The notes under the pieces: generated by a model
Seen by the model: only the letters and a program-made list of their open reading frames with translations
Told to the model about the DNA's origin: nothing
Database searches by the model: none
IMG/VR virus record: IMGVR_UViG_2531839446_000012
Location: 1 to 7,318 of that record
DNA: 7,318 bases
DNA from: a virus
Taxonomy: Duplodnaviria > Heunggongvirae > Uroviricota > Caudoviricetes
Direction: 5' to 3' (one strand)
Part shown: piece by piece, positions 5,961-6,312 of the stretch
How the letters are laid out: each line of letters starts with the position of its first letter
Position numbering within the stretch: the first letter of the stretch is position 1
Made by a program: the position numbers and the translations under genes

Positions 5961-5984
5961 AAAAAAGCCTTCAGGACTGAAGGC
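5961..5984 (-). terminator. Rho-independent terminator (minus strand) overlapping the stop of the small wHTH ORF
   Basis: Minus-strand RNA GCCUUCAG-UC-CUGAAGGC (7-8 bp stem) followed by UUUUUUAUUU. Confidence 0.6.
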
Positions 5985-6168
5985 GTCTGTAACAACCAAA
6001 CTGATAGTCTGCCAGACCCGCCATAACCAGCTGGGTCAGTATTAACTGGCAGCGTTCGCGTGAAAGGTAAGTATTCTGCGCAATCTCCCCGACTGTCGCC
6101 GGGTCGGTAACGCTTAATTCATTAAACACCACTCTGGCGGTTTCTGTCATATCCTGCTGTTTCAGCAT
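5971..6168 (-). CDS. Small winged-helix/HTH DNA-binding protein (65 aa), function unknown
   Basis: Internal ATG of ORF-track entry 5971-6291, product MLKQQDMTETARVVFNELSVTDPATVGEIAQNTYLSRERCQLILTQLVMAGLADYQFGCYRRLQS; the N-terminal extension is rejected because it crosses the upstream terminator and looks non-protein-like. HTH-like segment TVGEIAQNTYLSRERCQLILTQLVMAGL; weak SD AAGGG upstream. Confidence 0.45.
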   Translation of the reverse strand: MLKQQDMTETARVVFNELSVTDPATVGEIAQNTYLSRERCQLILTQLVMAGLADYQFGCYRRLQS

Positions 6169-6291
6169 GTCTTTTTCCCTTTTCCGGTTAACGTGACACA
6201 CCAATAACTCTTGTCGAAAAAGCCAGCAACCTGAAAGAACGGTATTAATAACCACCAGCGAATTTATTGCGCTGCTGTATATTACGGACAC

Positions 6292-6312
6292 AAAAAAACC
6301 ACCTTCCGGTGG
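6292..6312 (-). terminator. Weak intrinsic terminator (minus strand) about 100 nt downstream of Q; tR'-like position
   Basis: Minus-strand RNA CCACC-GGAA-GGUGG (5-bp GC stem, GNRA loop) followed by U7 (reverse complement of A7 at 6292-6298). Confidence 0.4.

Follow-up and report, generated by a model that had tools for sequence, protein, structure and literature searches.

A predicted winged-helix gene precedes the conserved leader of M.EcoGI/GII-family adenine methylases in lambdoid phages and probably belongs to their control

Phage Mu carries a small protein gene, com, just before mom, whose DNA-modifying product is toxic, and the C proteins of restriction-modification (R-M) systems (C.PvuII, C.AhdI, C.Esp1396I) are small DNA-binding proteins encoded upstream of a toxic modification or restriction gene. 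The methylases M.EcoGI and M.EcoGII are prophage-borne enzymes whose constitutive expression is deleterious (Murray et al. 2018, PMC5778455). M.EcoGII needs no partner for full activity in vivo or in vitro, methylation by its family is non-specific (PMC5778455), and an M.EcoGI homolog was found to be transcriptionally silent by RT-PCR (PMC4659465). M.EcoGII has found wide use as a tool for non-specific m6A writing, and a large share of E. coli genomes carry variants of it. Published accounts describe these enzymes as silent in lysogens, harmful if made constitutively and 'tightly controlled', and do not give the mechanism; the word 'upstream' is absent from the main text of PMC5778455, where the small gene and leader considered below are not described.

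The window analysed here (the whole 7,318-nucleotide stretch of viral DNA) holds a methylase of this kind at the end of a cassette whose order, as read from sequence, is upstream DNA block with ribosome-binding site (RBS), winged-helix (wHTH) gene, stop-codon hairpin, leader and methylase. The features are as follows:

6410–6952, minus strand: Q-like antiterminator gene (DUF1133, weak Phage_antitermQ), the upstream neighbour; from Pfam and PHROG
6292–6312, minus strand: tR'-like intrinsic terminator, CCACC-GGAA-GGTGG plus T7
6197–6238, minus strand: conserved non-coding block upstream of the ORF, a candidate weak promoter and/or operator; from alignments
6169–6181, minus strand: ribosome-binding region of the ORF, AAGGGAAAAAGAC before the ATG
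5971–6168, minus strand: gene for the 65-aa predicted winged-helix protein; PHROG 331, WP_000917750.1
5957–5984, minus strand: hairpin over the ORF stop codon with T-run (TTTTTTATTT); from sequence, folding energy and stem variants
5821–5955, minus strand: structured, highly conserved leader of the methylase mRNA, ~135 nt; from identity and RNAalifold
4770–5820, minus strand: beta-class N6-adenine DNA methyltransferase of the M.EcoGI/GII family, frameshifted; from Pfam and homologs

In the window the methylase gene is split near 5503 by a +1 A frameshift (GCAAAG to GCAAAAG), and both halves match Pfam N6_N4_Mtase. A related locus (L001) encodes an intact 352-aa homolog with DPPY at residues 35–38 and FMGSGS at 310–315; the beta-class order of M.EcoGII is an N-terminal DPPY, a central TRD and a C-terminal FxGxG (PMC5778455). 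Assignment to the M.EcoGI/GII family follows from two links between sequence and literature. The window methylase is 94% identical to the MTase of phage 1720a-02, which has been named as very similar to M.EcoGII (PMC5778455), and strains 95JB1 and 95NR1, which carry a 100% copy of the window locus, have two M.EcoGI/GII homologs, ~93% similar, that are silent in the lysogen (PMC6602927).

The first-pass annotation had proposed a 65-aa, HTH-like ORF at 5971–6168, and both parts of this proposal held, with a dN/dS of ~0.10 and a predicted winged-helix fold. The ORF runs on the minus strand (6168–5971) from an ATG to a TGA at 5973–5971; the ATG is invariant, a Shine-Dalgarno (SD) sequence is present, and the same CDS is called by PGAP. 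Homologs of the protein number 333, from Enterobacteriaceae only, and the family forms 86 clusters at 50% identity (1.84 billion representatives searched). The ORF is a genuine gene under strong purifying selection. The alternative, that this stretch of the late transcript goes untranslated and the frame is open by chance, could appeal to the small size of the ORF and to the lack of any Pfam family matched above threshold, and is extremely improbable. Against it stand a codon-level comparison in which the dN/dS of ~0.10 was obtained with synonymous sites near saturation (pS 0.65), the preservation of frame, start codon and RBS in 24 of 25 loci, a confident wHTH model, and a length and set of motifs that are unchanged in family members down to ~30–40% identity; codon-level conservation effectively refutes it. 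Frame retention and the balance of synonymous and nonsynonymous change, the check proposed at the first pass, thus came out in favour of the gene. A longer, 106-aa form starting at a GTG (6291–5971), to which PHROG 331 gives a higher score than to the 65-aa form, is a gene-caller artefact, because the upstream frame closes within 1–6 codons in 11 of 25 loci and the sequence upstream of the ATG is non-homologous between loci.

AlphaFold2 models the 65-aa protein as a minimal winged helix (pLDDT 88) of topology H1-b1-H2-H3-b2-b3, with H3 as the recognition helix (helices at residues 4–17, 26–33 and 37–49, a strand at 24, and strands at 53–56 and 59–62), and the model is structurally similar to solved winged-helix domains. 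Polar residues shared across the family lie on H3 (R39, C40, Q41, T45, Q46) and basic residues (K/R) occur in the wing; in the model, the conserved R39, Q41, T45 and Q46 together with the wing K/R residues point indirectly to sequence-specific DNA binding. The protein is slightly acidic overall (6 basic and 7 acidic residues, counted from the sequence), and its only conserved cysteines, C40 and C59, make no zinc-ligand pattern. Versions of the mEp460 type share 51% identity with it and differ strongly in H2 and the wing, while the flanking DNA is unchanged. The Z-alpha domain of ADAR1 is marked by an Asn and a Tyr in helix 3 and by Pro-Pro-x-Trp in the wing; these signature residues are absent from the 65-aa protein, and a Z-DNA/Z-RNA-binding domain was rejected.

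The gene had been taken to be undescribed. It is already catalogued, as PHROG 331 with its function listed as unknown, and at NCBI as a 'TrmB family transcriptional regulator'; the profile search and structure prediction advised at the first pass returned this PHROG match and the AlphaFold2 winged helix. The TrmB name rests on sub-threshold, generic wHTH similarity: Pfam PF01978 (TrmB) scores 17.4 bits (E 0.004) against a gathering cut-off of 25.6, and the wHTH fills all 65 residues, leaving no TrmB-type C-terminal effector (sugar-binding) domain. In the Pfam search the protein reached no gathering threshold, and among 15 divergent members of the family TrmB was matched by 4 and DprA_WH by 8 (best E 1.3e-8). 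Top Foldseek and PDB-profile matches include the winged-helix dimerisation domains of SAM-dependent methyltransferases, and SelB WH/SECIS is among the fold matches; these winged-helix matches are generic. There was no Pfam match to HTH_3/Xre, no NCBIfam match, no PDB phmmer or hmmsearch hit below E 0.02, nothing meaningful from PADLOC for the ORF, and nothing relevant in the literature under the protein's accession or name.

The methylase lies downstream of the ORF in 24 of 24 genome and phage loci, at a spacing of 147–153 nt, so that the synteny survey suggested earlier yielded a recurrent ORF–methylase order behind a variable upstream gene. The first interpretation as a whole was sound in describing a real, terminator-flanked winged-helix gene, and missed its near-obligate pairing with the methylase. 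ORF, leader and methylase occur together in 131 of 145 leader-anchored copies and in 75 of 78 evaluable ORF-anchored viral loci, and the cassette is found in ~95% of several hundred loci across ~12 enterobacterial genera; 2531 of 5426 complete E. coli genomes were matched by the window type and 1459 by the mEp460 type. Leader and methylase without the ORF make up ~3% of copies. Replacement of the methylase (phiSTEC1575-Stx2k and the loci L044 and L082) has left the ORF intact, as has the methylase frameshift in the window, and there is no endonuclease at the loci examined. The hairpin and leader travel with the methylase, and the wHTH gene is a very common but dispensable upstream member that hardly ever occurs without it.

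The cassette is inserted where the late region of lambdoid phages of Enterobacteriaceae begins, just past tR', and the Q module in front of it differs; SfV, mEp460, phiP27 and Stx2 phages all have the ORF–methylase pair beyond tR' at the start of the late region. That the ORF follows a tR'-like terminator downstream of Q was confirmed for the window, where the upstream gene matches Pfam PF06576 (DUF1133, E 6e-110) and, more weakly, PF06530 (Phage_antitermQ, E 1e-8), and belongs to phrog_753, 'anti-termination protein Q-like'. The further idea that the ORF occupies the non-coding pR'/qut/tR' stretch did not survive, the gene being beyond tR'. Among 24 related loci the gene upstream of the cassette varies, and the DUF1133-type Q of the window recurs only in L001, consistent with a Q-like gene outside the conserved cassette. 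A sigma-70 consensus scan of 5800–6410 on the minus strand reported none for pR', the ORF or the methylase.

The upstream hairpin (stem-loop at 6312–6299, T7 at 6298–6292) lies 98–118 nt past the Q stop and extends to 16 bp when the A-tract and U-tract pair (-23.9 kcal/mol, z = -5.7 against shuffles); the equivalent site in SfV is annotated as a terminator. An intrinsic terminator, differing in sequence, stands 82–182 nt before the ATG in 79 of 86 distinct loci, and phage DNA homology to the cassette starts at window positions 6300–6266, so the terminator belongs to the Q module and marks the mosaic boundary. Flanking of the ORF by two terminators, each a hairpin with a T-run, was likewise upheld; their labels as 'weak' upstream and 'strong' downstream are reversed by the folding energies (-23.9 against -10.5 kcal/mol). 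The window has no overall excess of terminator-like motifs (11, against 8.0 ± 3.1 in shuffles), but the two flanking hairpins are positional features retained across independent loci.

Directly past each locus's terminator, conservation begins ~70 nt before the ATG and shows a pattern of block, variable UTR and RBS. Between -70 and -28 pairwise identity climbs from ~0.35 to 0.54–0.84; it drops to 0.34 at -20 and recovers at the RBS (0.75 for the -10 bin), which reads AGGTAAAAAGAC-ATG or AAGGGAAAAAGAC-ATG across genera. Within the block, TTGCTG (6229–6224) is followed after 17 nt by TATTGG (6206–6201; TATCTG in most genera) and then by TGTGTCAC. The pair TTGCTG-17-TATTGG agrees with the sigma-70 hexamers at 6 of 12 positions and was not reported by the promoter scan. 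The conserved block from -70 to -28 gives indirect support to the earlier option of a moron-like gene with its own promoter. RNA structure in the block was rejected (RNAalifold -0.11 kcal/mol). No C-box-like dyad is evident in the block and no clear dyad or repeat common to block and leader was found; a common operator motif was rejected, with CAGAGTTA in only 7 of 22 loci and only CAGAG general.

As had been noted at the first pass, a terminator overlaps the ORF stop codon, which falls inside a hairpin (GCCTTCA-GTCC-TGAAGGC, 5984–5967) followed by TTTTTTATTT (z = -2.45 against shuffles). A hairpin over the stop codon recurs in 58 of 60 distinct downstream segments (dG <= -7), with many compensatory stem variants. 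A canonical T-run follows in only 24 of 86 loci, other genera having TTTCTGCTGTG; termination here may be weak because the full T-run is missing in most genera. Where the ORF is absent (L077, L088, L093, L104) or another gene has been inserted (L156, L179), the hairpin and T-rich tract still adjoin the leader. The 'strong terminator' is therefore better understood as capping the methylase leader at its 5' end, and in E. coli-type copies it is also an intrinsic terminator.

The leader itself is the best-conserved piece of the cassette, with an identity of ~0.85 (0.95–0.99 at 5948–5929) compared with 0.73 for the ORF, 0.76 for the methylase and 0.35 at synonymous sites. RNAalifold predicts five helices:

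5948–5944 with 5876–5872, minus strand: helix P0
5943–5932 with 5924–5913, minus strand: helix P1
5909–5902 with 5892–5885, minus strand: helix P2
5871–5865 with 5859–5853, minus strand: helix P3
5852–5844 with 5834–5826, minus strand: helix P4

Across the predicted helices 95% of cells are paired, against 26–45% when the helices are slid. In each of 19 P1 variants the sense strand gives the more stable fold, and one pair in P2 varies among CG, AU, UA and UG; with so little variation in sequence, support from covariation amounts in essence to a single base pair. The methylase AUG has no SD before it and is unpaired in the consensus fold, in which P4 ends 7–8 nt upstream, and a GCTTT..AAAGC palindrome lies ~45 nt before the methylase ATG. 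An Rfam search of the spacer and flanks found no family, its one match (P26) being below threshold and on the wrong strand; AgvB, AsxR, Esr41, IsrK and STnc100 have no match there, and the Pas sRNAs are located elsewhere. A mini-ORF in the leader, ATG-GGC-GGC-TGG-TGG-GTG-stop (MGGWWV), was considered as a Trp-attenuation peptide and rejected because its stop position is not conserved and its SD spacing is poor; in many E. coli-type leaders the frame stays open for >40 codons.

Because it is nearly always found directly upstream of the methylase and its leader, the ORF is probably part of a control system that keeps the toxic methylase silent until lytic growth. Its mode of action is a more tentative matter. 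We infer, with a probability of about 40%, that the 65-aa protein, expressed from its own weak promoter, binds DNA and controls the methylase cassette, with a logic like that of R-M C proteins. The ORF would be transcribed from a weak, Q-independent promoter (TTGCTG-17-TATTGG/TATCTG) and its transcript would stop at the stop-codon hairpin; a conserved terminator between ORF and leader would be redundant after tR', which points to a transcription start in between. The protein may act on conserved DNA of its own upstream block and/or of the leader, for example the GCTTT..AAAGC palindrome, helping to hold the methylase off in the lysogen or setting its timing, and the methylase would be reached only by terminator-resistant, Q-modified RNA polymerase in lytic growth. 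Counting against this model are the 6/12 consensus of a candidate promoter that the scan missed, the lack of a clear dyad or repeat shared by upstream block and leader, the slight acidity of the protein and its want of a dimerisation domain, the ~3% of copies with leader and methylase and no ORF, and the stop-codon hairpins that have no full T-run in most genera. The divergence of H2 and wing in mEp460-type proteins beside constant flanking DNA is contrary to co-evolution of operator and protein, and the conservation of the leader suggests an RNA-level mechanism that a DNA-binding repressor does not explain.

Two other readings keep the protein tied to the methylase. It is possible but doubtful that the ORF has no promoter and is the first late gene, read together with the methylase by Q-modified polymerase, its product being a DNA- or methylase-binding helper that stimulates the methylase or directs it on replicating phage DNA. 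In SfV, mEp460 and phiP27 the ORF opens the late operon directly past tR', which would fit such a role, as would the poor putative promoter and the near-obligate methylase linkage. DprA_WH is the commonest Pfam match among divergent members (8/15), and by analogy Helicobacter pylori DprA binds and stimulates an N6-adenine methylase, although that effect has not been assigned to its winged-helix domain (PMC3597690); matches to the dimerisation domains of SAM-dependent methyltransferases point the same way. Yet M.EcoGII is fully active by itself (PMC5778455), leader and methylase are found without the ORF, the winged-helix matches are generic, and the conserved upstream block and intergenic terminator would be superfluous under pure Q read-through. 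We consider it improbable that the protein instead binds the leader RNA and opens its fold or brings in ribosomes, translation of the SD-less methylase mRNA then having to wait until enough of the small protein is present. No other element is conserved as well as the leader, which behaves like RNA folded from the sense strand, the methylase lacks an SD with P4 ending just before its AUG, some winged-helix domains bind RNA (SelB WH/SECIS being among the fold matches), and the gene order is analogous to that of Mu com-mom; but the protein is a predicted winged helix and not a Com-type zinc finger, the AUG is unsequestered in the consensus fold, covariation comes down to that single base pair, and copies without the ORF again exist.

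Independence from the methylase is unlikely. The gene would then be a moron, a self-contained unit of promoter, gene and terminator that is expressed in the lysogen and acts on host or other phage targets, for example in host gene regulation or superinfection control, the methylase link reflecting a shared recombination module. Its terminator-flanked layout and conserved upstream block, its integrity where the methylase is replaced or frameshifted, and the ability of a second moron to insert between ORF and leader would all suit this. Against it, the association spans ~12 genera and synonymous saturation, the ORF is separated from leader and methylase only in a few apparent decay products, and mosaic phage genomes would have split unrelated neighbours. 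A broader proposal, also doubtful, is that wHTH protein, obligatory hairpin and invariant three-way-junction leader together form a dedicated, undescribed control device for M.EcoGII-family methylases. The leader would be a new class of cis-regulatory RNA and the protein would act on RNA or on the DNA template, licensing an SD-less toxic methylase only in lytic growth, as a winged-helix counterpart by analogy of Com/mom or C-protein logic.

The analysis gives a testable layout of control, comprising a predicted winged-helix gene, an ever-present hairpin and a leader conserved beyond either coding sequence. Two habits of annotation are also corrected: calling the gene too long, at 106 aa, and naming its product 'TrmB family'. 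Were the regulator or the leader to prove true, it would explain how temperate phages use a genome-wide anti-restriction methylase without poisoning their hosts, and might supply a compact regulatory part.

Set beside described systems, the cassette has partial parallels in R-M C proteins and in Mu com-mom. With the former it would share, by analogy, a proposed role in timing or limiting the enzyme and conserved non-coding DNA before the small gene. C proteins, however, are Xre-type HTH dimers of ~80 aa with defined C-box operators, whereas the 65-aa protein is a predicted winged helix; C-protein genes are co-translated or overlapping, whereas ORF and methylase are split by a terminator-like hairpin and a 135-nt leader; and unlike in R-M systems the partner, a non-specific adenine methylase, is an orphan unaccompanied by an endonuclease. 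Mu com-mom resembles the cassette in having a ~60-aa protein gene in the directly upstream position, a structured translation-initiation region on the target mRNA and late lytic expression, but Com is an RNA-binding zinc-finger (Cys4) protein, where the 65-aa protein is a wHTH without a zinc-ligand pattern, and the Mu enzyme is Mom, where the cassette encodes an N6-adenine methyltransferase. M.EcoGI and M.EcoGII belong to the same family as the cassette methylase, whose window copy is frameshifted. Among minimal winged-helix domains (the N-domains of IclR, ArsR and MarR, DprA_WH, Z-alpha), the 65-aa protein is one without an effector or dimerisation domain. Like the lambdoid morons (stx, bor, lom; the Q–S interval), the ORF is a terminator-bounded accessory unit past Q/tR' that is present in some phages only; unlike them, it does not stand alone but comes with a second gene and a conserved RNA leader, and it has only a putative promoter.

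The genes relevant here all lie on the minus strand of the window.

Features of the window (coordinates, strand, identity)
7308–6949, minus: RusA
6952–6410, minus: Q-like gene (DUF1133 and a weaker Phage_antitermQ match)
6312–6292, minus: upstream hairpin, CCACC-GGAA-GGTGG followed by T7
6168–5971, minus: wHTH ORF
5984–5957, minus: downstream hairpin, GCCTTCA-GTCC-TGAAGGC followed by TTTTTTATTT, enclosing the TGA stop
5820–5377 and 5348–4770, minus: DNA methylase, two ORFs
4468–4720, minus: tRNA-Ile(CAU) and tRNA-Arg(UCU)
3525–3697, minus: STnc100 sRNA (Rfam, 101.5 bits, E 7e-22), directly 5' of the sialate-esterase gene
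Minus strand: sialate-esterase gene
116–1383, plus: IS3-family element, two overlapping transposase ORFs (HTH_Tnp_1, then rve)

Several features of the flanks were recorded alongside these. The CAU-anticodon tRNA was called Met by ARAGORN and tRNA-Ile (ileZ type) in the PGAP and phiP27 annotations, and a terminator follows the phage tRNA-Arg(UCU) at 4455–4436. The slot between tRNAs and esterase, which holds stx in phiP27 and 1720a-02, is filled by TerB-like gene fragments (3866–4327, minus), of which 3866–4012 matches Pfam TerB (E 1e-7) and the adjacent 55-aa ORF (4160–4327) has no Pfam match; this TerB-like gene has probably decayed. STnc100 is related to the prophage sRNA PasD in a 2026 preprint, and the IS3-family element lies immediately 3' of the esterase gene, in opposite orientation.

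The 65-aa ATG ORF and the hairpins on either side of it were found as the first-pass annotation had described them, and the ORF is a real gene. Across 23 loci from ~12 genera it has a dN/dS of ~0.10, with synonymous sites near saturation (pS 0.65), indicating constraint at the codon level; its start ATG is invariant among homologues and a purine-rich RBS is retained before it. That the ORF is not a gene is hardly credible. A 106-aa form starting at GTG scores higher against PHROG 331, but was rejected because 11 of 25 loci have an in-frame stop 1–6 codons before the ATG and the loci share no homology in the DNA 5' of the ORF. The PGAP annotation (WP_000917750.1) corresponds exactly to the 65-aa form, which is the gene.

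The proposed HTH-like character of the product was borne out by an AlphaFold2 model built from a 25-sequence alignment, in which the product is a minimal winged helix, predicted with confidence (H1-b-H2-H3-b-b; pLDDT 88, pTM 0.74). The window protein scores below every Pfam gathering threshold, and membership of the TrmB family was rejected on this basis (17.4 versus 25.6 bits); among divergent relatives the commonest Pfam match was DprA_WH (8/15), with TrmB matched in only 4/15. The NCBI name 'TrmB family transcriptional regulator' is a generic label, and a Z-alpha domain was also ruled out. The family is narrow: its 333 homologs are confined to Enterobacteriaceae, and a search of 1.84 billion representatives gave 86 clusters at 50% identity. 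MLKQQDMT at the N-terminus and CQLILTQL.AGL in helix 3 are common to all members; H2 and the wing are divergent. Two cysteines, C40 in the recognition helix and C59 in the wing, are invariant in 25 close homologs; in divergent relatives C40 is nearly invariant and C59 is not. A redox or metal role for this pair is possible.

The gene is paired with a methylase of M.EcoGI/GII type. The first set of loci examined, 24 from genomes and phages, all have the methylase 3' of the ORF at a spacing of 147–153 nt; the gene 5' of the ORF differs between loci. The same arrangement was seen in 75 of 78 evaluable ORF-anchored viral loci. An invariant 21-mer of the spacer matches at least 120 viral contigs, and 131 of 145 spacer copies belong to an ORF, spacer and methylase series; five consist of spacer and methylase without the ORF, and in five others the ORF and first spacer hairpin are kept with the methylase replaced. 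A few phages, including phiSTEC1575-Stx2k (L026, 2582–3653), retain the wHTH gene and first leader hairpin and have the remaining leader and methylase swapped for an unrelated HTH-domain gene, which places the recombination junction inside the leader.

The methylase itself is a beta-class N6-adenine enzyme (DPPY ... FxGxG), 94% identical to that of phage 1720a-02, which is very similar to the non-specific adenine methyltransferase M.EcoGII (Murray et al., PMC5778455). Enzymes of this type are silent in lysogens and toxic if constitutive (PMC5778455, PMC6602927, PMC4659465): constitutive expression of M.EcoGII is deleterious (PMC5778455), an M.EcoGI homolog of ST131 shows no transcription and has been called probably 'tightly controlled' (PMC4659465), and two M.EcoGI/GII homologs of strains 95JB1 and 95NR1 are reported to be without detectable activity in the lysogen (PMC6602927). 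Both strains contain a copy of the window locus at 100% identity. One extra A at ~5502–5503 (GCAAAG to GCAAAAG) frameshifts the window methylase at residue ~107, making it a pseudogene unless the extra A is a sequencing error; the wHTH gene, unlike the methylase, is intact.

The leader and the hairpin over the ORF stop codon are tied to the methylase. An intrinsic terminator lies 82–182 nt before the ORF ATG in 79 of 86 distinct related loci, and a hairpin covers the stop codon in 58 of 60 distinct downstream segments, followed by a canonical T-run in only 24 of 86 loci. Both elements hold their position across loci, although the window overall has no excess of terminator-like motifs (11 versus 8.0 ± 3.1). 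The original description of the upstream terminator as weak and the downstream one as strong is not justified by their folding energies (-23.9 kcal/mol, z -5.7, versus -10.5 kcal/mol, z -2.45). Inter-phage DNA homology begins at or just 3' of the upstream hairpin (6300–6266), which assigns this tR'-like terminator to the Q module and puts a mosaic junction there. The interval from the Q stop to this hairpin (6313–6410, minus) forms a long A-tract/U-tract stem, AAAAAAGCUUGC...GCAAGUUUUUU; the stretch 6285–6410, hairpin included, folds at -49.7 kcal/mol (z -5.0). The promoter scan gave no sigma-70-like late promoter in 6313–6410, so pR' of the DUF1133-type Q was not located. Of the five ORF-less loci, four (L077, L088, L093 and L104) have AAATGGGCGG... 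immediately after a hairpin and T-rich tract, themselves 3' of a different gene or a Q-like one; the hairpin of the fifth, L128, is weak. Two viral contigs carry a conserved ~110-aa gene (MS.ENYEI.LN.VDP.NL...) between the wHTH gene and leader (L156:2800–3140 and L179:2830–3165); this moron within the cassette is preceded by an AT-rich region of its own. After it, a new hairpin of unrelated sequence (GCCGCCA...TGGCGGC, with TTTCTGCTGTGG/TTTTTACTGTG) adjoins the leader. The stop-codon hairpin and T-rich tract thus travel with the methylase leader and not with the ORF.

No part of the cassette is better conserved than the 135-nt spacer core (5955–5821, minus), whose pairwise identity of ~0.85 (0.95–0.99 over 5948–5929) compares with 0.73 in the ORF, 0.76 in the methylase and ~0.35 at synonymous sites. 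The sense-strand fold predicted by RNAalifold is a three-way junction, in which a helix (UGGGC/GCCCA) closes off hairpins P1 (12–14 bp) and P2, followed by two further hairpins, P3 (GCUUU..AAAGC) and P4; P4 ends 7–8 nt before the methylase AUG, which lacks an SD. On 28 diverse leaders 95% of cells were paired, versus 26–45% with slid partners, and the covariation score exceeded all 500 shuffles, with double changes in only three pairs because most positions never vary. The P2 closing pair is U-A (35), C-G (25), A-U (13) or U.G (2) among 86 distinct sequences; the 5' arm of P1 is invariant, its 3' arm varies solely by wobbles or bulges, and in 19/19 P1 variants the sense strand gives the more stable structure. 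We read the leader as an RNA under selection on the sense strand, with constraint on its sequence as well, and with moderate statistical support for the fold; it matches no Rfam family and is a candidate new cis-regulatory RNA. Its invariant 5' part (5929–5949, minus) contains a mini-ORF with tandem Trp codons (ATG GGC GGC TGG TGG GTG TAA, MGGWWV), which is probably not a leader peptide, as other lineages do not keep the stop in that position.

Conservation 5' of the ORF starts ~70 nt before the ATG, just past each locus's own terminator. A conserved block from -70 to -28 (TTGCTG, 17 nt, TATCTG or TATTGG, TGTATGTCAC) is followed by a variable stretch (-27 to -14) and the conserved RBS. The block has no consensus RNA structure, which makes it a signal at the DNA level; it fits the sigma-70 hexamers at only 6/12 positions and was not picked up by the promoter scan. 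For a Q-modified polymerase, another terminator beyond tR' is redundant; it is useful only with a Q-independent start between the two. Taken together, the block pattern, the lack of RNA structure and the redundant terminator favour, without proving, a weak promoter of the ORF's own.

Our main reading, with a probability of roughly 0.4, is that the wHTH protein would bind DNA and control the cassette, that the ORF would be driven by its own promoter, its transcript being kept out of the methylase by the hairpin, and that the methylase would be reached solely by antiterminated polymerase. Three findings tell against control by the protein: the search for an operator defined none; mEp460-type proteins are strongly diverged in H2 and wing, yet their flanking DNA is the same as that of SfV; and leader and methylase exist without the ORF in some loci. 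It is unlikely, if worth considering, that the protein is instead an accessory factor for the methylase: it resembles DprA_WH, and DprA has been reported to stimulate an adenine methylase (PMC3597690), both points being no more than an analogy. A functionally independent moron seems quite unlikely, and Com-like activation of translation through the leader RNA very unlikely.

The finding is genuine, though less exotic than suggested: the wHTH gene is already catalogued, as of unknown function, and its place after tR' is a usual one for accessory genes. Its interest lies in the previously undescribed, near-obligate tie of the gene to a biotechnologically important toxic methylase, and in the unusually conserved, terminator-capped leader between them. 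The small protein is mentioned in no paper of the literature searched, and the M.EcoGII paper (PMC5778455) discusses nothing 5' of the gene. In its logic the cassette is like both the C-protein control of R-M systems and com-mom of phage Mu, but it departs from each in a defining feature: its protein is neither an Xre-type HTH, which in the former goes with C-boxes, nor a zinc-finger RNA binder, as in the latter.
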